A DNA stretch of 64,000 bases from Ktedonobacteria bacterium (GTDB lineage Bacteria; Chloroflexota; Ktedonobacteria; Ktedonobacterales; JACDGC01): positions 12,707 through 76,706 of the forward strand of contig DAIDGU010000087.1 of NCBI GenBank assembly GCA_027459785.1. The letters are read 5' to 3'. Shown piece after piece: positions 35,062 through 48,396 of this stretch. The position numbers and the translations under genes were made by a program. The notes below the pieces were generated by a model, which searched no databases, was not told the origin of the DNA, and saw nothing but the letters and a program-made list of their open reading frames with translations. Each line of letters begins with the position of its first letter. Position 1 is the first letter of the stretch.

Positions 35062-35629
35062 CGACGTTGCCACCGATGGCGATGCGGTCGGCGATGTTGA
35101 AGACGCGGCTCAGGCGATGCACCTGCTCATCAAGCCGTTTGGTCTTGAATAGGTTGAAGGCCGCCGTGCCGCCCGGCGTCAGTAGCCGCGCGATCTGGCG
35201 CAGGAACGGCGTGGCTAGTGTGCCATGGACGATCTCGCCCGCGACATACATATCGATGCAGATGAGATCGAAGGTCTCGTCGCAGGTTGCCACCCACGTG
35301 AAAGCGTCGGCCTCGATCAGTTCGACGTTGCTGAGGTGCGCCAGGCCGAACTCCTCGCGCGCCAGCCGGGCGACGGCGGGATCGCGCTCGATGGCGACAA
35401 TGCGGATCGGGCCGCAGCGGTGAGTGAGCAGCGTAGCGATGGTGCCGCCGCCCGCGCCGAGGATCAGCGCCCGCCAGGGCAGCCGGCGGCGGGGGATGAA
35501 GGCGTCCCACACGTCGAAGGCGTGGTCTGCGGCGACAGCAATCGATTGCACGTAGCCGCCGACGACGAGCGCCTTGCGCCCGTCCCGGTCTTCCACGCGT
35601 GGCGGCGGGGGCGCGGTGATCTCAGGCAC
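35039..35629 (-). CDS. Class I SAM-dependent methyltransferase / spermidine-synthase-like protein
   Basis: 'ALILGAGGGTIA' (motif I), 'IVAIERDP', 'FDLICIDMY'; 8-nt overlap with upstream gene. Confidence 0.75.
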   Translation of the reverse strand: MPEITAPPPPRVEDRDGRKALVVGGYVQSIAVAADHAFDVWDAFIPRRRLPWRALILGAGGGTIATLLTHRCGPIRIVAIERDPAVARLAREEFGLAHLSNVELIEADAFTWVATCDETFDLICIDMYVAGEIVHGTLATPFLRQIARLLTPGGTAAFNLFKTKRLDEQVHRLSRVFNIADRIAIGGNVVIHARRD

Positions 35630-36860
35630 GGGCCAACCTCAAGCCGAGCAAATGCGCCATCGCGTGCAAAGCGGCCTGGGCGGTCGTGCGCTCCGCGCCG
35701 GTATACGTCCCTGCCAGGATGCCTGCCGCCACGCGCTCCAGTTCCGCCAGGGCGCGCGGGGTGTCCAGGTCGTCTTCCAGCGCGGCGATGAAGGTTGCTG
35801 CCGGCGCGAAACGCTCACGGATCGACCACAGCGCGTAGGCCGGCGTCGCCGCCTGCTCCGCCCCCAAACGCGCGGCTTCTTGCAGGCGCAGGGTTCGCGC
35901 CTGGGCCTGCTGCATGTCGGCCTCGAAATATTCCCACGCTTCCCGATAGTGATGGGTGGCGAGCAGCAGCCGCACCGCGTCTGCGTCATAATGTTTCAGC
36001 AATTGGCCCACGATGGTCAAGTTGCCCTTGGACTTGCTCATCTTCTCGCCATCCAGCGCCACCATGCTGACGTGCATCCATTCGCGCACGTAGGGGCGCA
36101 CGCCGGTCGCGTTCTCGGATTGCACGATCTCGCTGCTGTGGTGCGGGAAGATCAGATCTGTGCCGCCGCCGTGGATGTCGATAGTGGGGCCGAGATAGCG
36201 CGTCGCCATCGCCGTACATTCGATGTGCCAGCCGGGCCGTCCCGGCCCCCACGGGCTGGCCCACGCCGGCTCGTCCGGTTGCGCCTGCGCCCGCCAGAGC
36301 AAGAAGTCCAGCGGGTCACGCTTGCGCGGGTCATTGGGATCATTGCCGTGTTCGTTCGCCTCAGCCAAGAGTTGCGCATAGGTGTCGAAGCCGGCGGCCT
36401 TCGCCAGATCTCCATAGGTCGGATCGCTCTGCGCGGCGAAATAGATCCAGCCGTCGCTGATATAGGCATTGCCTTTATCCAGCAAGGTTTGGATGATAGC
36501 GAACATCGTCTGTAACTCTTCCGAGGCGCGCACATAATGGTCCGGCATGGCGACATTGATCGCCGCCATCTCGCGCAAAAAGCGGTCCGTTTCGCGCTGC
36601 GCCAGTTCGTTCCAGTGGATGCCCAGTTCCTCAGCTTTAGCGAAGAGCGGATCGTCGATGTCGGTGACGTTCTGCGTATAGGTCACGGCCAGGCTCTGAG
36701 CGCGCAGGAAGCGGACGAGGGTGTCGAAGGTAGCAAAGACGAAGGCATGCCCCAGGTGCGCGGTATCATAGGGCGTAACGCCACAGACATACAGGCGCAC
36801 ATGACCATCCGGCGCGGTGAACTCTGCCACGCGCTGCGTCATCGTGTTGAAAAGGCGCAT
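35622..36860 (-). CDS. Class-I cysteine ligase of MshC type (CysRS paralogue lacking the C-terminal anticodon-binding extension)
   Basis: '[14 protein letters not shown]' (HIGH), '[14 protein letters not shown]', 'GRPGWHIEC', '[11 protein letters not shown]', 'KMSKSKGN'; 412 aa, ends soon after the post-KMSKS helical domain. Confidence 0.7.
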
Positions 36861-37670: not shown

Positions 37671-37832
37671 AATAACGCTACTTTCCTCATGGCTGACAGT
37701 TGAGATCACCTTGATATTTTGTAGCATAGCACAAAGTCGGGGGGCAAGACGAACGCGATCAGTACAACTCTTTCCTACCGGGCTATCAAAACCCCCCAAT
37801 CCTATAAACCCTGATTTATATATCCACCCCTC

Positions 37833-37862
37833 TTGACAAACGCCTTGTCCATCTGTTATATA
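37833..37862 (+). promoter_or_regulatory. Candidate sigma-70 promoter for the ArsR-HTH/MIPS ORF, embedded in TTATATA repeats
   Basis: TTGACA (37833-37838), 17-18 nt spacer, TTATAT/TATATA; TTATATAT at 37816 and 37872, palindromic TTATATAA at 37856. Confidence 0.5.
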
Positions 37863-37945
37863 AATAGCAGCTTATATATCGCGGCCTCGTCTCCCGCACC
37901 CTAGCCATAGATGGTGGGTTGGGGGCGGGCGCAGGAGCGGATGTG

Positions 37946-39496
37946 ATGGCGAGCGAGTGGCAGGCGTACCCAGACCTCAAGCAGCACTTGAGCGCGCTCA
38001 ACGATCCTTTTCGTTTGAGCTTGCTGCGCCTGCTGGCGGAACGGCACGAGCTGACCGTCGGCGAGTTGGTGACGGCGCTAGGCCGCAGCCAACCGCTCGT
38101 CTCGTTTCATCTGAAGTTCCTCCGCGAAGCCGGCCTGGTACATCAGCGCCGGCAAGGCCGCCAGGTCTTTTACGCGCTGGATGCCGCGCAGTTCGCGCGG
38201 TTGCAACGCCTGCTGGAAAGCGTGGTGCTGCCGGAGGGGCTGCGGCGGCGCGTCAGTCAGGTCCGCGCGCGGGGCGCGGACGAAGCCGGGGAACGGCATG
38301 TGTGCCAGTACTGCGCCCACGTTCCCCCCTATAACGAGGAAGAAAGAACACAGATGGGTAAGAAGGTGCGCGCCGCGATCATCGGCGTGGGTAACTGTGC
38401 GTCGTCGCTGGTGCAAGGCATTGAGTATTATCGCAACGCCAGCGATACGGATTTCATCCCCGGCCTCATGCATGCGAACCTGGGTGGCTATCATGTCAGT
38501 GATATCGAGTTCAGCGCCGCCTTCGACATCGACACCACCAAGGTCGGCAAAGATCTCAGCGAGGCCATCTGGGCGGGCCAGAACAACACCATCAAGTTCG
38601 CCGATGTGCCGACCCTGAACGTCCCCGTACATCGCGGCATGACACACGACGGCCTGGGCAAATATCTCTCGCAGGTCATCACCAAAGCGCCTGGTTCGAC
38701 CAGCGACATCGTCAAAATCCTGCAAGACACCGGCACGGATGTCGTCATCAACTACCTGCCGGTGGGCAGCGAGACGGCGACGAAGTGGTATGTGGAGCAG
38801 ATCTTGCGCGCTGGCTGTGGCTTCGTCAACTGCATCCCCGTCTTCATCGGGCGCGAGCAGTATTGGCGCGAACGCTTCGAGGCGGAGAAGCTGCCGGTCG
38901 TCGGCGACGACATCAAGAGCCAGGTCGGCGCGACCATCGTCCACCGCACGCTGGCACGGCTGTTCCGCGAGCGCGGCGTGCGTCTGGAACGCACGATGCA
39001 GCTCAACGTCGGCGGCAACACCGACTTCCTGAACATGCTGGAGCGCGAGCGCCTCGAATCCAAAAAGATCTCCAAGACCAACTCCGTCACCAGCCAGCTC
39101 GACTACGATATCGGCAAAGACAACGTCCACATCGGCCCCAGCGACTACGTCGCCTGGCTCTCAGACCGCAAGTGGGCGTACATCCGCCTGGAAGGCCGCA
39201 CCTTCGGTGACGTGCCGCTGAACCTGGAACTGAAGCTGGAAGTGTGGGATTCGCCGAACAGCGCGGGCGTGGTCATCGATGCGGTGCGTTGCGCCAAGCT
39301 GGCGAAGGACAATGGCGTCGGCGGCGCGCTGCTGGGGCCGTCCTCTTACTTCATGAAGTCCCCGCCGGTGCAATACACCGATCCCCAGGCCCGCCAACTG
39401 GTGGAGCAGTTCATCCAACAGTACGGAGCCGCCGGCAGCAACGGCCAGGCCACGTCGGTAGACGCCGCCGCCCTGAGCGAAGTGCCAGCGGAGTAG
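37946..39496 (+). CDS. ino1: Single ORF fusing an ArsR/SmtB-type winged-HTH domain to myo-inositol-1-phosphate synthase
   Basis: Within ORF 37919..39496; '[44 protein letters not shown]'; then '[23 protein letters not shown]' onward is MIPS. No stop between the two parts; internal ATG 38355 has GAGGAAG upstream. Confidence 0.85.
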
Positions 39497-39597: not shown

Positions 39598-40257
39598 TTA
39601 TGCGCCGATGAGAGCGCGCAGGCGCTGGATGGACTGGGCGGGCGTCTCGCGGTCGTTAAAGACGGCGGAGCCGGCGACCAGCACGTTCGCCCCCGCGCTG
39701 ACGGCCTGTGCCACGGTGCCTTCGTGGATGCCGCCATCCACCTCGATATCACGCGTCAGCCCGCGCGCATTCAACGCCTGGCGCAGTTGCGTCACTTTCG
39801 CCAGGCAATCGGGGATGAGCGCCTGACCGCCGAAGCCGGGATGCACGGTCATCACCAGGAACAGATCAGCATCAGTGAGATCGTCCATGATCGCCTGCAC
39901 CGGCGTGGCGGGGCTGATCGCCAGGCCGGCCTGCGCGCCATGCTGGCGGATGTAGCCCAGCAGTGGGCGCGGATCGGGCAACACTTCGCGGTGAACGATG
40001 ATGATGTTCGCCCCCGCGCGCAAGAAGTCATCCACATAGCGCGTGGGATCGGTGATCATCAGGTGGGCTTCGATGGGCAGTGTCGTGGCGCGGCGCACAG
40101 CCTCAACCCCCAGCGTGCCGATGCTGATGTTGGGGACGAAATGCCCATCCATCACGTCTACCTGAATGCGATCCGCGCCGGCAGCGGTGACAGCTTGCAC
40201 CTGCTCGCCCAGGCGCGTGAAATCGGCAGAAAGGATCGAGGGTACGATAAGTGCCAC
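39598..40257 (-). CDS. rpe: Ribulose-phosphate 3-epimerase
   Basis: 'IVPSILSADF', 'IQVDVMDGHFVPN', 'MTVHPGFGGQ', 'IEVDGGI'. Confidence 0.93.
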   Translation of the reverse strand: MALIVPSILSADFTRLGEQVQAVTAAGADRIQVDVMDGHFVPNISIGTLGVEAVRRATTLPIEAHLMITDPTRYVDDFLRAGANIIIVHREVLPDPRPLLGYIRQHGAQAGLAISPATPVQAIMDDLTDADLFLVMTVHPGFGGQALIPDCLAKVTQLRQALNARGLTRDIEVDGGIHEGTVAQAVSAGANVLVAGSAVFNDRETPAQSIQRLRALIGA

Positions 40258-40305
40258 GGTCAGACACTCCTTTTGAAAGTTGATCGCTAGCGAACACTAC
40301 TAGAT

Positions 40306-40432
40306 CGAACACGAAAGCCACGAAAGTGAACACGAAGATCACGAAAGAGCCATGAAAAAGTTATTTCTAAATTTTCGTAATCCTTCGTACTTCTTCTTAT
40401 TTTCGTGCGCGCTTTCGTGGCCTTCGTGTTCG
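40306..40432. repeat. Long heptad palindrome (family F4, CACGAAR repeats) between pgl and rpe
   Basis: Left arm CGAACACGAAAGCCACGAAAGTGAACACGAAGATCACGAAAG; right arm is its imperfect complement ...CTTTCGTGGCCTTCGTGTTCG; AT-rich centre. Confidence 0.8.
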
Positions 40433-40440
40433 AAAAACTC

Positions 40441-41223
40441 TCACATGTGCAGTTCGCCGGCGGAGGCCATGTCGAGCAGCCAGAGCAGTTGGCCCTGGGT
40501 GGGCTTGACGCGCTGCGAGGGCAACAGGTCTTGCGGGTTGGCGGGGATGTCTTCGAGCACCTTGGCTGTGATGCCGGCCTTGCCCGCGCTGGTGACGATG
40601 AAGGCGACCACCGCGCCGGCGTTCAGCACCGGCAGCGTGAGCGAGATGCGATCCACCAGCGGGTCCGGCCCGCTGTGGTGTTCCACGCCGACCACCAGGC
40701 GATCTTCGACATCGTCGACGGGGTTGCCAGGGAAGAGCGAGGCCACGTGACCATCCGGCCCCAGGCCCAGCAGGATGAAGTCCATGCGTGGCAGGGCCAA
40801 CAGCGTCGGATTGGTCACTGGCTCCAAGCCAAAGCTGCGCCGTAGTTCCTCCGCATAATGTTCGGCGGCCTGGTCACGCGGGTCTTCGCCGCGCATGCGA
40901 TGGACCTGCGCGGCGGGGATGGGAACCTTGCTCAGCAAATTATCGTTGGCCAGCTTGTAATTGCTGAGTGCGTTATCGGGCGGCACGCAGCGTTCGTCGC
41001 TGAACCAGATGTGGACCTGCCCCCACGCGATCTGAGCGAGATAGGCCGGCGTCGCCAGCAATTGATAGAGCGTGGTGGGCGACGAGCCGCCCGTGATCGT
41101 GACATCCGCCCGCCCGCGAGCCGCGACGGCCTCCTGGATCACCGTGACCATAAGGTCCGCCGCCGCCGTCGTCAACAGTTGCACATCAGGACTGATGCGG
41201 ACCGCGCCGCCCTCGCTCATCAT
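40441..41223 (-). CDS. pgl: 6-phosphogluconolactonase
   Basis: 'ITGGSSP', 'ILLGLGPDGHVASLFPG'; ATGA overlap with opcA stop. Confidence 0.9.
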   Translation of the reverse strand: MMSEGGAVRISPDVQLLTTAAADLMVTVIQEAVAARGRADVTITGGSSPTTLYQLLATPAYLAQIAWGQVHIWFSDERCVPPDNALSNYKLANDNLLSKVPIPAAQVHRMRGEDPRDQAAEHYAEELRRSFGLEPVTNPTLLALPRMDFILLGLGPDGHVASLFPGNPVDDVEDRLVVGVEHHSGPDPLVDRISLTLPVLNAGAVVAFIVTSAGKAGITAKVLEDIPANPQDLLPSQRVKPTQGQLLWLLDMASAGELHM

Positions 41224-42497
41224 CGCCGTTTGCCTCCCTTGCTAACCGGTGGCTTCACCAGCGGCTTCGCCGCCAGCAAGGCCGCCTCATACACCTGATC
41301 GTGGCCAAACACGCCCAATTGCGTATGCAACAGGCTGGTTTCGTTCGGGGCCGTCAGCGGCGAGCAGCGCGGCGGCATCGTCTCGCCTTCCGCCACGATG
41401 ACCGTCGTCGCATTTTTCAAATCGTCGTCGCGCCGCACCGTGAAAGTAGCCGACTGGCCACCGGCCACGCGCGCTTGAATGCCGACGCGCATCAGCGCGC
41501 CCACGCCCACGCAGGGATGCACCTCTGTTTGGCCCTGCGCGTTGACATCAACACAGATATCCTCGTCGCCATTGGTCAGCATCGGCCATTCCGCGCTAGA
41601 CATCGTCCACCAGTCATGCGTCTGCACGCCGAAGCGCGGCTCGATGGCGATCGTCACCGGCGCGCCCTGGTGCGTGCGCAGCCCGATCGTGCTCGCGCCC
41701 TGCGGCGTATGCATCGCCGTCAGCGACTGCCAGCGCAAACGGGAGGCGAACCAGCCGGCACAGAGATTCGCCTGCGCGGGGTTGGGATGCTCGCCCTGCG
41801 CCACGGCATATTCGATCTCGATGCGCTGCACGCCGTCCAGGTATGGGCGCAGGCGCGGCACGTCGAAGAACTGCGCCACCAGTTCGCGCCAGGGGCGCAG
41901 GCGGGTCCAGTTGAAATCGCTGAACGCGGTGCGGTTCGCCCCCTGCTGCGCCATCTCCGCCAGGCGGATGAACGCGGCATCGGGATCGGCGAAATCGGCG
42001 CTATCGACGATGACGCGGTCGCTGACATCGATCAGGTTTTGCACCAGATCGCCCTGCGGCATGCCGTCGGTCCACCAAACGAAGACGGGCAATTCCGTCA
42101 ACAGCAGGGGCAGCACGACGCCGGACAGGTGGCGAGCGGTTTCGCCGCGCGCATGGATCTTGATTTGCTCGGAGCAGGTCTGGCCCGCGCCGTGCTGCGG
42201 CACGTGGCAGTGCAGCGAGACTTCCGCGCGCAGGGGCGAGGTCGGCTCGTCGGGTTCGGCGATCAGGATGATGGAACGCGAGGGGTGTTGCCCCGTCAGC
42301 CCTTCCACCGCGCGCCCGACGCGCGCGCCCTGTTCCGCCCCGCGTGCATAGGCGACGAGCGTCATCACGCTGCTGCGCACGGCGACCTGCCCACCGTGGA
42401 TAATGCTCATATCACGTCCCAGTTGCGCCAGCGTCGCCTCAATCTGGCTCAGGGACACCTCATGCGCCTCTTCACGAGTGCTCGGCGCTTGTAACAC
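41220..42497 (-). CDS. opcA: Glucose-6-phosphate dehydrogenase assembly protein OpcA
   Basis: Within ORF 41220..42560; position between zwf and pgl, 'SSVMTLVAY' N-terminal OpcA-like segment; GTG 42497 after GGAGG overlaps zwf stop (TAGTG). Confidence 0.78.
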   Translation of the reverse strand: MLQAPSTREEAHEVSLSQIEATLAQLGRDMSIIHGGQVAVRSSVMTLVAYARGAEQGARVGRAVEGLTGQHPSRSIILIAEPDEPTSPLRAEVSLHCHVPQHGAGQTCSEQIKIHARGETARHLSGVVLPLLLTELPVFVWWTDGMPQGDLVQNLIDVSDRVIVDSADFADPDAAFIRLAEMAQQGANRTAFSDFNWTRLRPWRELVAQFFDVPRLRPYLDGVQRIEIEYAVAQGEHPNPAQANLCAGWFASRLRWQSLTAMHTPQGASTIGLRTHQGAPVTIAIEPRFGVQTHDWWTMSSAEWPMLTNGDEDICVDVNAQGQTEVHPCVGVGALMRVGIQARVAGGQSATFTVRRDDDLKNATTVIVAEGETMPPRCSPLTAPNETSLLHTQLGVFGHDQVYEAALLAAKPLVKPPVSKGGKRR

Positions 42498-44056
42498 TAT
42501 AACCGCCTCCAAGAACGCCCATCGCGTTCGATAAACTCTTCCGCGCGACGCGGCCCCCACGTCCCTGGATCATAAAGTTCCACGGGATTCGCGTCGGGTT
42601 CGGTCTGCCATCCAGCCTCGATGGCATCCACCAACTCCCAGGCCGCCTCGGTTTCATCACGCCGGGTGAACAGCGTGGAATCGCCGACCATGCAATCCAG
42701 CAACAGCCGCTCATACGCCTCCGGCGGCTCGCCGCCGAACGACGAACCGTAGAGAAATTCCATATTCATCGTGCGGATGTGCATCGCCTGGCCGGGCGCT
42801 TTGACGCCGAACTTCAGCGCGATGCCCTCATTGGGCTGGATGCGCATGGACAAAATATTTGGTTGTAACTCGTCAGCCCCCGTATTCCGAAACAGAGAAA
42901 ACGGCGGGCGCTTGAATTGGATGGCCACCTCGCTGATACGTTTCGGCAAGCGCTTGCCCGTGCGCAGGTAAAACGGCACGCCGGCCCAGCGCCAATTGTC
43001 GATGGCGATCTTCGCGGCGACGAACGTGTCGGTCGGCGAATTGGGTGCCACACCCTTCTCCTCCCGATAGCCGGGGACTTCCTGCGAGCCGATCCAGCCG
43101 GGGCCATACTGGCCGCGCACGGTGCATTCCGCCACCTCATCGATGCTCATCGGCATGATGGCGTGGAGGACTTTCACCTTTTCATCGCGCACCAGATTCG
43201 CGGCGAAGCCCGCCGGCGGCTCCATCGCCACCAGGGTCGTGAGCTGCAACATATGGTTTTGCACCATATCACGCAGCGTGCCGGCCTCTTCGTAATAGCC
43301 GCCGCGCCCCTCGACGCCGATGCTCTCGGCGACGGTGATCTGCACGTGGTCGATGTACTCGCGGGTCCAAATCGGCTCGAAGATGCCGTTGCCGAAGCGC
43401 AACACGAGGATGTTCTGCACGGTTTCCTTACCCAGATAATGATCGATGCGATAGATTTGATCTTCTTTGAACACTTGATTCAACTCAGCATTGAGTCGCA
43501 TCGCGGATTCGCGGTCGTGGCCGAACGGCTTCTCGACGATCAGCCGGCTGAAACTGGGGCCGGTCGTCGTGCGTTCCACCGCGCCCGCCGCGCCCAGGCG
43601 CTGCACGATATCATCATAGTAACGTGGCGGCGTCGCCAGGTAAAAGATACGGTTGCCGTTAGTGCCGCGCTCCTGATCCAGTTGGGTCAACTTCTCGGTC
43701 AACGTGCGATAGGCCGCGTCGTCGTCGAACTCCACCTGGCAATAGCTGATCCCCTTGGCGAACGTCTCCCACAGCGCCGGATCGTAGGGTTGGCGAGCGA
43801 ATTCCTTGACGCCGTCTTCAGCGTACTGGCGGAACTCCTCGTCGCTCCACGGGCGGCGGGCGACGCCGACGACGGTGAAGTTCGCCGGCAAGGGGGGCTG
43901 GTCAGCGGCGAGGCTATAGAGGGCGGGCAGCAGCTTGCGCTGGGTCAGGTCGCCGGTGGCCCCAAAGATCACCATGATGCATGGTGCCACCGTGCGCGTT
44001 TCCGACAGCCCCGCGCGCAAAGGATTATCCACTACGGATGGATTTTCAACCAGCAT
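42497..44056 (-). CDS. zwf: Glucose-6-phosphate 1-dehydrogenase
   Basis: Within ORF 42497..44131; 'IFGATGDLTQRKL', 'RIDHYLGKE' active-site motif; ATG 44056 after GGAGGG. Confidence 0.93.
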   Translation of the reverse strand: MLVENPSVVDNPLRAGLSETRTVAPCIMVIFGATGDLTQRKLLPALYSLAADQPPLPANFTVVGVARRPWSDEEFRQYAEDGVKEFARQPYDPALWETFAKGISYCQVEFDDDAAYRTLTEKLTQLDQERGTNGNRIFYLATPPRYYDDIVQRLGAAGAVERTTTGPSFSRLIVEKPFGHDRESAMRLNAELNQVFKEDQIYRIDHYLGKETVQNILVLRFGNGIFEPIWTREYIDHVQITVAESIGVEGRGGYYEEAGTLRDMVQNHMLQLTTLVAMEPPAGFAANLVRDEKVKVLHAIMPMSIDEVAECTVRGQYGPGWIGSQEVPGYREEKGVAPNSPTDTFVAAKIAIDNWRWAGVPFYLRTGKRLPKRISEVAIQFKRPPFSLFRNTGADELQPNILSMRIQPNEGIALKFGVKAPGQAMHIRTMNMEFLYGSSFGGEPPEAYERLLLDCMVGDSTLFTRRDETEAAWELVDAIEAGWQTEPDANPVELYDPGTWGPRRAEEFIERDGRSWRRL

Positions 44057-44183
44057 GACACCCTCCAACAATGTCGGGAGATTCCCTACATCCCCATCTT
44101 TGATCATACCACGATTCATGCCTACTGGCATAGGTCATCTGGCACATCCTGACCAGGACGTTTGGCGCAAGAAGGGGGCGACG

Positions 44184-44403
44184 GGACGGGAACACGGAGG
44201 ACACGGAACGTACCACGGAAGACACGGAAATAAGAAAAAAGGAGGCGGAACGCGAAATGACGCGAGATCGGCGCGAAATGACACGAGAGGTAAGCGAGCA
44301 TCCATTTCGTGCGATCTCGCAGATATTTCGTGGTATCTCGCGTTCCGTCTTCATCCTTTCCGTGTTCTCCGTGTCTATTTCCGTGCCTTCCGTGTTCCCG
44401 TCC
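44184..44403. repeat. Long heptad palindrome (F4; CACGGAA and CGCGAAATGAC repeats) between gnd and zwf
   Basis: Outer arms GGACGGGAACACGGAGGACACGGAA... / ...TTCCGTGCCTTCCGTGTTCCCGTCC are complementary; arms about 100 nt. Confidence 0.85.
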
Positions 44404-44409
44404 TCCTGC

Positions 44410-45330
44410 TTATTGCGCCGGTTTGCCGTCTTCGGTTTGCACCGCGTGGCCGCCGAATTGGTTGCGCAACGCCGCGATGACCTTGGCCGCGAACGATTCC
44501 GGCTGGCGTGAGTGGAAGCGTTCGAGCAGCGACAGCGTGATGACCGGCGCGGGAACGCTCTTGTCGATGGCCTCGGCCACCGTCCAGCGGCCCTCGCCCG
44601 AATCTTCGACGTAGCCGCGAATGTTGCTCAGATCCGAGCCGTCGGCCTTGAAGGCCAGTTCGGCCAGGTCCAGCAGCCAGGAGCGCACGACGCTGCCGTG
44701 CTGCCACACATGCGTGACATCCAGCAGATTCAGGTCATACTCAGACGCCTTGAGGATCTCGAAACCCTCGCCATAGGCTTGCAGCATGCCGTACTCTACG
44801 CCGTTATGCACCATCTTGACGAAATGCCCAGCACCGTGCGGGCCAAAGTAGCCGTAGCCGTCGGGCGGCGCGAGTGTCTTGAAGATCGGTTCCAGATGCT
44901 TGAAGATGTCTTGCTCGCCACCGATCATCAGCGAATAGCCTTCCTTCAGCCCCCACACGCCGCCGCTGGTGCCGCAGTCCATATAGTGAAAGCCCTTGGC
45001 CGTCAGGTCCACCGCGCGGCGCTTCGTGTCTTTGAACCACGAGTTGCCGCCGTCCACGATGATGTCGCCGGGCTTGAGCAGGGTGGTCAAGTGCGCCAGC
45101 GTCTCATCCACCACCTGGCCCGACGGCACCATAATCCACACGACCTTGGGCGAGTCGCTTAGCTTGCTCACCAGTTCTTCCATGCTATACGCCGGGATCG
45201 CGCCGTGCTGCGCCGCGAGATCCACCGGCCCCTTGCTGCGATTGCTGGCGATGACCTTATGCCCGCCCTGCACCAGCCGCGTGACCATGTTGCCGCCCAT
45301 GCGACCCAAGCCGTAAAATCCGATCTCCAC
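44410..45330 (-). CDS. gnd: 6-phosphogluconate dehydrogenase (decarboxylating), short about-300-aa form
   Basis: 'IGFYGLGRMGGNM' Rossmann motif, 'VDGGNS', 'GAGHFVKMVHNGVEYG'. Confidence 0.9.
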   Translation of the reverse strand: MEIGFYGLGRMGGNMVTRLVQGGHKVIASNRSKGPVDLAAQHGAIPAYSMEELVSKLSDSPKVVWIMVPSGQVVDETLAHLTTLLKPGDIIVDGGNSWFKDTKRRAVDLTAKGFHYMDCGTSGGVWGLKEGYSLMIGGEQDIFKHLEPIFKTLAPPDGYGYFGPHGAGHFVKMVHNGVEYGMLQAYGEGFEILKASEYDLNLLDVTHVWQHGSVVRSWLLDLAELAFKADGSDLSNIRGYVEDSGEGRWTVAEAIDKSVPAPVITLSLLERFHSRQPESFAAKVIAALRNQFGGHAVQTEDGKPAQ

Positions 45331-45370
45331 AGGTTGAATCTCCTCTTATCCTCTTATAAGGAAATGGTGC

Positions 45371-45476
45371 GGAACGCGAAATGACGCGATAGCTTCGCGA
45401 AATAACACGAGACATATTTAAAACTACAGCAATATCTCGCGCCTTTTCGCGGATTTTTCGTGTCATTTCGCGTTCC
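45371..45476. repeat. F4 palindrome between tal/pgi and gnd
   Basis: GGAACGCGAAATGACGCGA ... TCGTGTCATTTCGCGTTCC with AT-rich centre. Confidence 0.8.
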
Positions 45477-45495
45477 GTTCGTCTTTTTGTTCTCG

Positions 45496-48396
45496 TTACT
45501 CCGCCAGGTGGGCCAGACCGGCGCGGATGGCGCGGCCCAGCTCGATGCGCACAACCCGCCGCCCGCGACTTTGGAGCGCCTGGTAGTCGCCCAGAGCTTG
45601 CGCGGCAGTGAGATTGCCAAAGGTATAGGCTACGCCGGGGATACGCGCATCGAGTTGCGCCTCGCCGACGATCTGGATGACGATGCCGCCGGGTGGCCCG
45701 TCCAGGTGCAATTGCCCCGCCGCGTGCCGCGCGCCCGCCCCGTAGTCCAGCGTCGTCGCCACCTTGGCGTGGTCGCGCAGCCACAGGCGCAGCCGTTGCA
45801 GCAACGCATCGTGGTCCGGCGCGGGATCAAGGTACGCGATGAGGGCGAAGGCGTCGCCGGCCTGGGCCAGGTACGCCAGGGCTGCCTTGAACGAGCGGGC
45901 GTTGGAAGTGCCGGGCAAGGCCGCCGCGCTGCGTAGCGCGCTGGCGCTCGCGTCCGTGGCGCTGACCTTGATGGCGGTACCCACCAGAAGCGGCGTCAGC
46001 GGGGTCACGGTTGGTAGCACAGGGAAGCGCCCGTTGCGCTCGAAGTCGCTCAGAAGGTGCCGCGTCGCCTCAGTGACCGCCGGCAGATCGGGCGTGGTGC
46101 AGGGGTTGCTGCCCAGGATGTGAGCCGCGACCACCGTCGCCACTTGCCAGCGATAGACCTCGCCGGCCAGCGCGTAGCGCCGGGGGATGCGCAGGCGCAC
46201 CACCGGCTGCCCGGCGGCTTGCAAGGCAGCCAGCGCGGCATCCTGCGCGGCATCGAAGCCCTCGTCCGCGCGCAGATAGACGAAGAGCCGGTCGTCGCCA
46301 TAGACAGCCGGTGCGCCCAGCGGTTCATCCACCACGGGAATGATGCCCTGTCCCTGTTGGCCCGTGCTGTTGGCGACGAGCTGCGCGATCCACGGTGCGA
46401 AGGATGCGACCGAGGGCGACGCCACGATGGTCAGCTTGTCGCGCCCCGCTTGCGCCCCCGCGCCCAAGACGGCCCCCAGCACCAGGCCGGGATTGCGCTC
46501 CGCTGGCACGTCGGGGCCGCACGCCGTCATCTGCGCCAGCGCGGCGTCCAGCAGGGCATCCACATCGAGGCCCATGAGCGCGGCTGGCACCAGCCCGAAA
46601 TATGCCAGCGCGGCGTAACCGCCCACCATATCCGGCGGGTTACGAAAGACGCGCCGGAACGGGAATCGGCTCGCCTCCAGCGCGGAGCCGGGATCGGTGA
46701 TGGCGATGACGTTGCGCGCCGCCGCCTGGTCGCCCAAGGCGGTGCGCGCCGCGCCGAAAAAATAGTGGAAGAGCGTCAACGTCTCCAGCGTCGTGCCAGA
46801 CTTGGATGCCACGACGAAGAGCGTGCGGCGCAGATCAAGCAGTCGCTCCACCCGCAGCACCGTCGTGGGATCGGTTGTCGCCAGCACATGTAGGCGCGGG
46901 AAGCCAGGCTGCGCGCCGAAGGCCGCGCCGAGCGCCGCCGCGAATAGGCCGCTGCCGTTCATCCCCAGCAACACCATGTCGCTGTACCCCGCCGTGCGGA
47001 TCTCGTCGGCGAATTCGGCGAGATCGCGCACCTCGGAGGCCAGCACGCGCGGGAGGTCGAGCCAACCCAGCCGGTCGGCGGCACTGCCGCCGGTCGGGTC
47101 GCTCGGCCACAGGGTCGTGTCTTTGTCCCACAGACGCGCGCCGACATTGGCAGCCGCGAGGCTGCGCAATGCTGCATCGGCCACGTCCGCCAGCGGCGCG
47201 GGGATGACCTCATCCCCTGTGGGTGCGCCGCTGGCCTTAGTAGGGTGGTTTGTGCTCGCCATCTGTTGCTGCAACTCGCCGACCTTTTTGGCCGTTTCCT
47301 CCATCAACTGGTCATACGAGTCGGTGAAGCTCTTGACGCCCTCCACCAGCAGCGTCTGGGTCACGTCGTCGATGGCGATGCCAACGGCGGCGAGATCTGC
47401 CATCACCTGCTGCGCGCCCGCCTGATCCGCCGCCAGGGTCGGCGCGACCTTGCCGTGATCGCGGAAAGCGTCGACGGTGGCCGGCGGCATCGTATTCACC
47501 GTGTCGGGGCCGATCAGCTCCTCAACATAGATCACGTCGCGGTAGGCCGGATTCTTCGTGCTGGTGCTGGCCCACAGCGGGCGCTGCACATGCGCCCCCT
47601 TGGCGCGCAGGGCGGCGAAGTCGGGGCCACCGAAGATCGCCTGGAAGCGCTCATACGCGATCTTGGCGTTGGCGATGGCCGCTTTGCCCTGCAACGCCAA
47701 GATGCGCTGCTTCTCCGCTTCGCTGCCGGCCTGTTCGGCCAGCTTAGCCAGCCGCTTGTCCGTCTCCGTATCCACGCGGCTGACGAAGAAGCTGGCGACG
47801 GAGGCGATGCGATCCACCGGCTGGCCGGCGGCGGCGCGCTTCTTGAGCGCATTCACATACGCCTGCGCCACCAGTTCATAGACCGGCACGGCGAACATCA
47901 GCGTGATGTTGACGTTGATGCCCTCGCTCAACAATTGTTCCACGGCGGCCAATCCTTCGGAGGTCGCCGGCACCTTGATCATCAGGTTCGGGCGCTGCAC
48001 GCGGCCCCACAGGTAGCGCGCCTCGCTGAGCGTCGTCTGGTCGTCGTGCGCCGCGCCGGGCGAGACTTCCAGCGAGATGAAACCATCCGCGCCGTTGCTC
48101 TGGTCATAGATCGGGCGCAGAATGTCCGCCGCCATCTGGATGTCGCGGATCGAAAGTTCGTCGAAGATTTTCTTGGGATCGGTCACGCCCTGGCGCACCA
48201 GATCCTTCAGTTGGTCGTCATAGTCGGCGCTGCCGCCGATAGCTTTCTCGAAGATGGTAGGATTCGAGGTCGCCCCTCGGATCTCACCGGCGGCGATCAG
48301 CTTGCCGAAATCGCCCTTCTCCATAAAGCTGCGGCGGATGAAGTCGATCCAGGGACTCTGCCCCTGGGCGACCAATTCCGTCAATGGGTTGCTCAT
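45496..48396 (-). CDS. Bifunctional transaldolase / glucose-6-phosphate isomerase fusion
   Basis: N-terminus 'QSPWIDFIRR', 'GATSNPTIFEKA', 'IKVPAT' (transaldolase); C-terminal about 550 aa are PGI-like ('VVASKSGTTLET'); 966 aa. Confidence 0.88.
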   Translation of the reverse strand: MSNPLTELVAQGQSPWIDFIRRSFMEKGDFGKLIAAGEIRGATSNPTIFEKAIGGSADYDDQLKDLVRQGVTDPKKIFDELSIRDIQMAADILRPIYDQSNGADGFISLEVSPGAAHDDQTTLSEARYLWGRVQRPNLMIKVPATSEGLAAVEQLLSEGINVNITLMFAVPVYELVAQAYVNALKKRAAAGQPVDRIASVASFFVSRVDTETDKRLAKLAEQAGSEAEKQRILALQGKAAIANAKIAYERFQAIFGGPDFAALRAKGAHVQRPLWASTSTKNPAYRDVIYVEELIGPDTVNTMPPATVDAFRDHGKVAPTLAADQAGAQQVMADLAAVGIAIDDVTQTLLVEGVKSFTDSYDQLMEETAKKVGELQQQMASTNHPTKASGAPTGDEVIPAPLADVADAALRSLAAANVGARLWDKDTTLWPSDPTGGSAADRLGWLDLPRVLASEVRDLAEFADEIRTAGYSDMVLLGMNGSGLFAAALGAAFGAQPGFPRLHVLATTDPTTVLRVERLLDLRRTLFVVASKSGTTLETLTLFHYFFGAARTALGDQAAARNVIAITDPGSALEASRFPFRRVFRNPPDMVGGYAALAYFGLVPAALMGLDVDALLDAALAQMTACGPDVPAERNPGLVLGAVLGAGAQAGRDKLTIVASPSVASFAPWIAQLVANSTGQQGQGIIPVVDEPLGAPAVYGDDRLFVYLRADEGFDAAQDAALAALQAAGQPVVRLRIPRRYALAGEVYRWQVATVVAAHILGSNPCTTPDLPAVTEATRHLLSDFERNGRFPVLPTVTPLTPLLVGTAIKVSATDASASALRSAAALPGTSNARSFKAALAYLAQAGDAFALIAYLDPAPDHDALLQRLRLWLRDHAKVATTLDYGAGARHAAGQLHLDGPPGGIVIQIVGEAQLDARIPGVAYTFGNLTAAQALGDYQALQSRGRRVVRIELGRAIRAGLAHLAE

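Follow-up and report, generated by a model that had tools for sequence, protein, structure and literature searches.

A conserved in-frame fusion of an ArsR-type DNA-binding domain to myo-inositol-1-phosphate synthase in a family of Ktedonobacterales

This report concerns a single gene, here named arsR::ino1, on the forward strand of a 64,000-nucleotide stretch of DNA from a Ktedonobacteria bacterium (contig DAIDGU010000087.1 of assembly GCA_027459785.1; the whole stretch is called the window below, and its own numbering is used throughout). The gene encodes an ArsR/SmtB-type winged-helix domain joined in frame to a complete myo-inositol-1-phosphate synthase (MIPS, Ino1). The fusion is real and conserved, no description of it was found in the literature, and it belongs to the known class of enzyme/repressor fusions. 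The explanation that we favour, and consider probable rather than assured, is that the fusion arose from an adjacent arsR-ino1 gene pair, that its product may act as an autoregulator while the same gene also gives free MIPS, and that the inositol made goes into phosphatidylinositol-type lipids.

An earlier note on this DNA had described one ArsR-MIPS reading frame with no stop codon. This is confirmed: the frame is open from 37946 to 39496 (Table 1) and both of its domains are matched by profiles. The two peptides quoted in that note are also present, at residues 120–129 (10 letters) and 140–158 (19 letters). The N-terminal part is an ArsR/SmtB domain. Pfam HTH_5 matches residues 20–66 (E = 1.8e-13, 50.6 bits, cut-off 22), the NCBIfam ArsR/SmtB metalloregulator model HTH_metalloreg (NF033788) matches residues 13–86 (80.4 bits, cut-off 55), the predicted secondary structure elements follow the order α1-α2-α3-αR-β1-β2-α5, and the sequence aligns with SmtB (PDB 1r22, E = 1e-11), BigR, HlyU and other solved ArsR proteins. 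The C-terminal part is a MIPS (EC 5.5.1.4). Pfam Inos-1-P_synth (PF01658) matches residues 328–436 (E = 3e-37, 127.5 bits, cut-off 27), and the whole of the NCBIfam inositol-3-phosphate synthase model TIGR03450 is matched by residues 141–490, with a score of 549 bits that falls short of the cut-off of 638. The likeness of the MIPS part to the solved Ino1 of Mycobacterium tuberculosis (PDB 1gr0) extends over residues 4–354 (E = 1.7e-148) and includes the N-terminal binding start; that enzyme stands alone, without a DNA-binding extension. The N-terminal NAD-binding motif GxGxxAS, here GVGNCASS, is invariant in the MIPS part of the fused clusters described below.

Translation could in principle begin further upstream, at a TTG at 37919, which would extend the product to 525 residues. 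This is an unlikely start, because relatives keep an M-[AG]-S-E-W beginning and an AGGAG lies 8 nucleotides (nt) before 37946. An AlphaFold2 model of the whole fusion, built from an alignment of 15 rows, has a mean predicted local distance difference test (pLDDT) score of 45.5. The ArsR fold is predicted with confidence (residues 10–100, pLDDT 73–89), while the linker scores around 31.

The fusion is conserved in relatives, where the earlier note had suggested that it be looked for. In a search of 151 genomes sampled from the order, all seven genomes of the window's family (here f1, with four genera; f2, f3 and f4 are other Ktedonobacterales families) have ArsR and MIPS in one open frame; for one of them (G015) the search matched the MIPS part alone, and the ArsR part was seen in frame at its locus. 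A protein search added 11 further clusters of the same architecture, from several sources, with lengths of 473–548 residues and identities of 71–84%. These rank above thousands of stand-alone MIPS of about 390 residues, some of them labelled Ktedonobacterales at source. Three metagenome contigs also carry the fused gene, all from lineages already seen. The earlier note had allowed that a stop codon might be hidden between the domains, or that the fusion might be unique to this copy; the junction is open in the relatives too, and neither is the case. In a maximum-likelihood tree of the MIPS part (55 rows), all 18 fused rows cluster together (support 98/99), beside unfused f4; the tree is not rooted, and omits six loci (two of f4 and four of f2) that were missed by the start-motif pattern. 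Outside f1, no ArsR::MIPS protein was found among the best 150 of 14,649 representative matches, 20 of which (long or offset) were scanned with Pfam, and more distant fusions could be missed at this depth. A search with residues 1–136 likewise found PF01658 only in the window's own family.

The sister families show where the fusion came from. A separate, homologous arsR lies just upstream of ino1 and on the same strand in all five f2 loci and in 21 of the 22 f4 loci (L022 has none), and none was found within 2 kb upstream of ino1 in the 16 f3 loci. The free regulators are about 130–170 residues long, with a Pro/Ala-rich tail, and are followed by a gap of 30–215 nt before ino1. Their winged helix is homologous to the fused ArsR domain, and probably orthologous, at 34–51% identity. 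They have in common with it an N-terminal SEW motif, the recognition helix SQPL-S-HL and the position before ino1, and the f2 and f4 loci have the same promoter and box array (see below). They differ in being separate genes with a tail of their own, mostly with a pair of cysteines that is discussed below. The two genes of the unfused pair are in the same frame in 8 of 26 cases. Locus L009 (genome G005) is a single substitution away from the fused state: its two genes are already in frame and only one TAA stands between them, 30 nt ahead of the TTG with which ino1 begins.

The comparison shows the ancestral state to be an arsR-ino1 pair read from one promoter with an array of TTATATA-like boxes. 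A single fusion event fits the data. In the ancestor of f1 the arsR stop codon would have been lost, and the tail of the regulator, together with a spacer of about 100 nt, would have been read through to become an in-frame and fast-evolving linker; the order of these events is a reconstruction. The arrangement extends beyond the order: in other Chloroflexota families an out-of-frame arsR precedes ino1 in 9 of 18 loci, these having been taken, in a biased choice, from 150 listed rows for their long upstream open frames. The ArsR-type gene before ino1 thus looks like a phylum-wide and undescribed regulator of ino1. We considered whether the long frames upstream of ino1, in f4 and in these 18 loci, might represent extra domains of the enzyme. 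They are Arg/Pro-rich out-of-frame readings, nine of the 18 being the arsR genes just mentioned, and the idea was dropped.

Within the fused proteins, the three parts evolve at very different rates. In six pairwise comparisons, the ratio of nonsynonymous to synonymous substitution (dN/dS) is 0.00–0.07 for the MIPS part, 0.13–0.39 for the ArsR domain and 0.21–0.62 for the linker, the last resting on about 30 synonymous sites and therefore noisy. The segment from GRQ..Y to KVR, which contains the linker, ranges from 27 to 78 residues, with 11 distinct lengths in 12 clusters, and is always in frame and free of stops. The ArsR parts of different genera are only 36–47% identical overall, and the recognition helix (S48, Q49, P50, L51, S53, F54, H55, L56, L59 and R60) is invariant in 15 fused sequences. 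These data support purifying selection on both domains and retention of the fusion by the family. The host genome, a draft in 88 contigs (4.84 Mb, completeness 94%), has no other MIPS match, and the MIPS half is almost certainly still a working enzyme, because it is the sole genomic copy and is under very strong purifying selection.

The earlier note had also remarked on a Cys-containing linker. The cysteines are present in the window, as part of an H-x-C-x-x-C-x-H motif, which only the window's subclade has and which does not characterise the fusion as a whole. The H-x-C-x-x-C core is found in G000, G011, G019, G022, P0004, P0006, L091 and L092, with the final His replaced in P0006; no other fused lineage has the motif.

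A promoter and a candidate operator can be proposed upstream of the fused gene. The −35 and −10 elements are separated by a spacer of 18 nt, an arrangement found in five other fused loci. All 33 loci examined have TTGAC[AGT] ahead of arsR, whether this is fused or free, and then an A/T-rich −10; the boxes overlap the −10 and continue beyond it. The earlier note had pointed to TTATATA repeats in the region 37816–37879 as a possible target of the DNA-binding part. The repeats are real, and their distribution supports them as a candidate operator: allowing up to one mismatch, the 6.6 kb upstream of arsR in the 33 loci contain 184 boxes (27.9 per kb) and the remaining 129.9 kb contain 82 (0.63 per kb), a 44-fold difference in density. 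A spacing of 15–16 nt between boxes is kept in f1, f2 and f4, and at the position of box 1 the relatives have CCATAAAT-N4-ATTTATGG. No box array was found between arsR and ino1 in the unfused loci, nor upstream of ino1 in f3, where arsR is absent. More distant Chloroflexota families have CATAAAG/CTTTATG repeats instead of TTATATA boxes. An autoregulated arsR-ino1 operon is the likely arrangement, in which the regulator would bind these boxes. A generic scan listed no terminator after the fused gene.

Table 1 Features of the arsR::ino1 locus (positions in the window; residues numbered from the first Met of the fusion)
Feature	Position	Strand	Remarks
Inverted repeat/box 1, TATAAA-N5-ATTTATATATCC	37803..37825	+	AT-rich, upstream of −35; repeat copy 37816–37824; candidate second operator site
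−35 TTGACA	37833..37838	+	
Extended −10 TG-n-TATATA	37854..37865	+	TATATA at 37857–37862; overlaps box 2
Box 2 TTATATAAAT	37856–37865	+	TTATATA copy 37856–37864
Box 3 TTATATATC	37872..37880	+	16 nt beyond box 2; candidate operator, located at the transcription start or shortly past it
Shine-Dalgarno AGGAG for full-length product	37933..37937	+	8 nt before ATG 37946; GGAGG-like at same place in fused relatives
Fused gene arsR::ino1	37946..39496	+	516 residues plus stop (39494–39496); stop-free frame
ArsR/SmtB winged-helix domain	37973..38230	+	residues about 10–95
Recognition helix of ArsR part			residues 48–60
Variable linker, probably disordered	38231..38353	+	residues 96–136
H-x-C-x-x-C-x-H motif	38297..38320	+	H118, C120, C123, H125; limited to the window's subclade
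Internal Shine-Dalgarno-like stretch GAGGAAG	38336..38342	+	codons of Glu131–133
Internal ATG (Met137)	38354..38356	+	at ancestral ino1 start position
MIPS (Ino1) part	38354..39493	+	380 residues, 137–516

The fused gene may have a second start. It had been proposed in the earlier note that an internal ATG with GAGGAAG upstream could give free MIPS; both are present, with the correction that the ATG is at 38354 and not at 38355, which is out of frame. In the unfused genomes ino1 starts with ATG, GTG or TTG, with AGGAGG at a spacing of 9 nt. All ten fused junctions that were seen as DNA have a start codon at this ancestral position (8 ATG, 2 GTG), and all 12 fused clusters have Met (6) or Val (6) there. 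In the genera g2 and g3 a purine-rich AGGGAG or AAGGAG still stands at the ancestral distance from the start, and no linker residue is invariant other than Glu133, which lies four codons upstream of Met137. A metagenome scan for the codons of the Val-bearing clusters P0007, P0009–P0011 and P0013 gave only the three fused contigs from lineages already seen. As far as the sequences indicate, a start codon and a Shine-Dalgarno-like stretch have been kept at the old ino1 start. We infer that a working internal initiation site is retained, probably a weaker one in the window's clade, and it is plausible that the fusion and free MIPS are both made.

What the regulator might sense can also be considered from the comparison. 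The classical metal-sensing members of the ArsR/SmtB family, as distinct from the family as a whole, are marked by a Cys pair in α3N or by D-x-H-x10-H-x2-E in α5. Both sites are absent here: ELTVGEL replaces the ELCVGDL of SmtB, and the α5 segment has no His. Most free regulators have two cysteines, one in the wing (VYCSLD) and the other 7 or 10 residues further on, in α5; the two occur together in 22 of 26 and are both absent in the other four, which suggests a joint thiol or metal site. Neither occurs in any of the seven fused genomes or the 12 fused clusters. This points to a change of sensor after fusion, though weakly, since some free regulators have also lost the pair.

We therefore hypothesise the following mechanism for arsR::ino1. 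Translation from the ATG at 37946 would give a 516-residue protein, whose ArsR domain would dimerise and bind the boxes at its own promoter, so that transcription of the gene responds to how much enzyme there is. Ribosomes would also start at the retained Shine-Dalgarno sequence and the ATG at 38354 to make a free MIPS of 380 residues, and this would uncouple the supply of enzyme from the dose of repressor.

Several observations count against parts of this scheme, and four rival explanations need to be weighed with them. One is that an error of sequencing or assembly hides a stop codon or a frameshift between two genes. The genome is a draft, and public reads give no cover of the region: of 21 sequencing runs listed, none contains more than 0.07 of the sampled words and none is on record as RNA. 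Nevertheless, the open junction recurs in seven assemblies, three metagenome contigs and 11 protein clusters, with linkers that differ in sequence and in length. We regard this comparative evidence for a real gene as decisive, and an artefact as so improbable that it can be set aside. A neutral accident, meaning loss of a stop codon with an ArsR part now in decay and MIPS the only part of importance, is disfavoured and seems to us very unlikely. The in-frame pair of L009 illustrates that a single substitution would be enough, and the ArsR domain does evolve faster than MIPS. Against this, the dN/dS of the ArsR domain is 0.13–0.39, the recognition helix is invariant across genera in spite of the low overall identity of their ArsR parts, and both the operator boxes and the reading frame are kept in seven of seven fused loci.

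The other doubts concern the promoter, the model and the internal start. The proposed promoter is missing from the output of the generic scan, whose −10 rule requires a T as the sixth base. The linker ratios are noisy, as noted, and the MIPS part of the AlphaFold2 model scores below 50 and is unusable because the alignment is shallow, leaving the model silent on the arrangement of the domains. In the window's clade the Shine-Dalgarno core GAGGA(AG) is weak or displaced, 10–13 nt from the start, with 13–14 nt between GAGG(A) and the ATG in the window itself; relative L004 has no GGAG at all, only GAGAAAGAAAG; the Val codon is confirmed as GTG in only two of the six Val-bearing lineages; and the Met/Val residue sits beside the conserved GKK-KVR segment with which the enzyme fold begins, so that structure could account for its conservation. 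The points on the Shine-Dalgarno core and on the Met/Val residue are what would be expected if the full-length fusion alone is made, from an upstream start with a good AGGAG at 8 nt, and if the internal ATG or GTG and its purines are leftovers or are kept for the sake of the protein. Each MIPS subunit would then carry a DNA-binding domain. We consider this unlikely, while taking it seriously. The start codons and the Met or Val residues persist in every junction and cluster while the rest of the linker is hypervariable, g2 and g3 keep their AGGGAG or AAGGAG at exactly the spacing of the unfused gene, and it would be strange to make repressor and enzyme in equal amounts when the enzyme supplies a major membrane lipid. 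A further possibility, to which we give a similarly low weight, is that MIPS has become a trigger enzyme: its ligand state (glucose-6-phosphate, NAD+ or product), or metal or redox binding by the H-x-C-x-x-C-x-H of the subclade, would control DNA binding in place of the ancestral sensor site. The Cys pair is found in 22 of 26 unfused regulators and in no fused form, the linker motif is new to the window's subclade, and the fusion has been held in frame through many insertions and deletions in the linker, all of which would fit. On the other hand, the four unfused regulators without either Cys indicate that the loss is not tied to fusion, and a long, variable and predicted-disordered linker argues against tight allosteric coupling in most lineages. 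A fuller version would make MIPS a true trigger enzyme. The regulator would have lost its Cys sensor, operator binding would depend on the ligands or the oligomeric state of the MIPS tetramer, or else on the linker site of the subclade, and the internal start would adjust how many subunits of a mixed tetramer can bind DNA and how many are plain. This version is more doubtful still. We thus prefer the autoregulatory fusion with additional free MIPS.

There are several known systems with which the fusion can be compared. PutA (a ribbon-helix-helix domain with proline dehydrogenase/pyrroline-5-carboxylate (P5C) dehydrogenase) and BirA (a winged helix-turn-helix with biotin ligase) are, like NadR, bifunctional enzyme/repressors. 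In Corynebacterium and Mycobacterium, ino1 is controlled by a separate regulator of LacI type, IpsA. The archaeal RbkR is a winged helix-turn-helix with a riboflavin kinase (PMC5397151). Like PutA, BirA, NadR and RbkR, arsR::ino1 has an N-terminal DNA-binding domain and a pathway enzyme on one chain, with its own promoter as the expected target. It has the structure of a trigger enzyme, to judge from its sequence, in that a DNA-binding domain and an intact pathway enzyme are combined on one chain. It differs from these four in the enzyme, which is MIPS, and in the DNA-binding domain, which is of ArsR/SmtB type; in the unfused ancestral pair, which is extant in sister families; and in its retained internal start. 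Ligand-controlled DNA binding is a hallmark of PutA, BirA and RbkR, and is hypothetical for arsR::ino1. BzdR, a helix-turn-helix with a shikimate-kinase-like domain, is likewise a regulator built from a DNA-binding domain and an enzyme fold, and its enzyme-like domain acts as a sensor (PMC3602430). In arsR::ino1, by contrast, the MIPS part is the only copy in the genome and is under very strong purifying selection.

Other fusions of ArsR with enzymes exist. In the search with residues 1–136, the only other ArsR fusions related to this domain were with S-adenosylmethionine-dependent methyltransferases and with low-molecular-weight, ArsC-like phosphatases (P0273–P0286, 283–903 residues). They too have the ArsR winged helix at the N-terminus; their partner enzymes are different and presumably serve different pathways, and none contains PF01658. 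The earlier note knew of no described fusion of a transcription factor to MIPS, and a literature search, in which near matches were judged by title and the opening of the abstract, found no description of an ArsR::MIPS fusion. As far as the same sources go, a link between an ArsR-type regulator and ino1 is also not described.

The fate of the inositol can be approached through the neighbouring genes of relatives. In 8 of the 11 downstream open reading frames scanned (L008–L011, L017, L020, L023 and L024), ino1 is followed on the same strand by an acyltransferase of family PF03279, which we take to be the family of PatA, the mycobacterial phosphatidylinositol mannoside acyltransferase. In the window, ino1 is followed not by a PF03279 gene but by rpe, on the opposite strand. 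Among the major polar lipids of Dictyobacter halimunensis, an isolate of the Ktedonobacterales, is phosphatidylinositol (PMC12453558). Most likely, the inositol goes into lipids of the phosphatidylinositol type. MIPS is nearly universal in the phylum, being found in 352 of the 401 Chloroflexota genomes sampled; this tally and that for the order (133 of 151) include seven genomes flagged as unpublished, on which nothing else reported here depends.

A few side observations on MIPS genes were made in the same searches. Other architectures include an intein with LAGLIDADG inside MIPS (P0135), a C-terminal GNAT acetyltransferase (P0132 and P0145) and an N-terminal nucleotidyltransferase (P0248). 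Two MIPS matches occur in a single genome for a few relatives (G043:C2, G351), most others having one, and a few relatives' extra matches, two or more, look like fragments at contig ends.

Mycothiol was tried as the main context for the enzyme, as hinted by an MshC-like gene two genes upstream, and was rejected. INO1 and all the Msh equivalog models score below their cut-offs (MshA 380 against 462.5, MshB 194 against 224, MshC 377 against 485 and MshD 69 against 163 bits), and the neighbourhood is not conserved: TatD, the MshC-like gene, rpe and pgl are adjacent to the gene in no relative's locus. In the passages of one paper that names both mycothiol and Ktedonobacter (PMC3406030), the two are unrelated. 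The MshC-like gene (35622–36860, minus strand) encodes a 412-residue protein resembling cysteinyl-tRNA synthetase without its anticodon-binding end, and also scores 354 bits with the cysS model (cut-off 340). MshA-like and MshB-like genes, full-length and below threshold, lie elsewhere in the genome. A mycothiol-like thiol pathway in this genome is possible and not established. Downstream of the fused gene, on the minus strand at 39598–48396, there is an oxidative pentose-phosphate run of rpe, pgl, opcA, zwf and gnd, together with a 966-residue transaldolase/phosphoglucose isomerase fusion (NF007080, 1118 bits). These enzymes draw on the glucose-6-phosphate pool that MIPS also uses; their adjacency to it is not kept in relatives.

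The fusion is easily overlooked, as database records label the protein simply as MIPS and its regulatory half goes unannotated. Related genomes provide a before-and-after series, from a free pair, through an in-frame pair with one stop codon, to fusions with linkers of 27–78 residues, a series suited to tracing the emergence and the effects of a regulator-enzyme fusion. The retained internal start makes the gene a candidate for one gene with two products of different function. More broadly, the conserved gene order and the candidate operator point to an undescribed ArsR-type regulator of inositol synthesis across the Chloroflexota. MIPS is nearly universal in this phylum, and one cultured relative at least has phosphatidylinositol among its major lipids.

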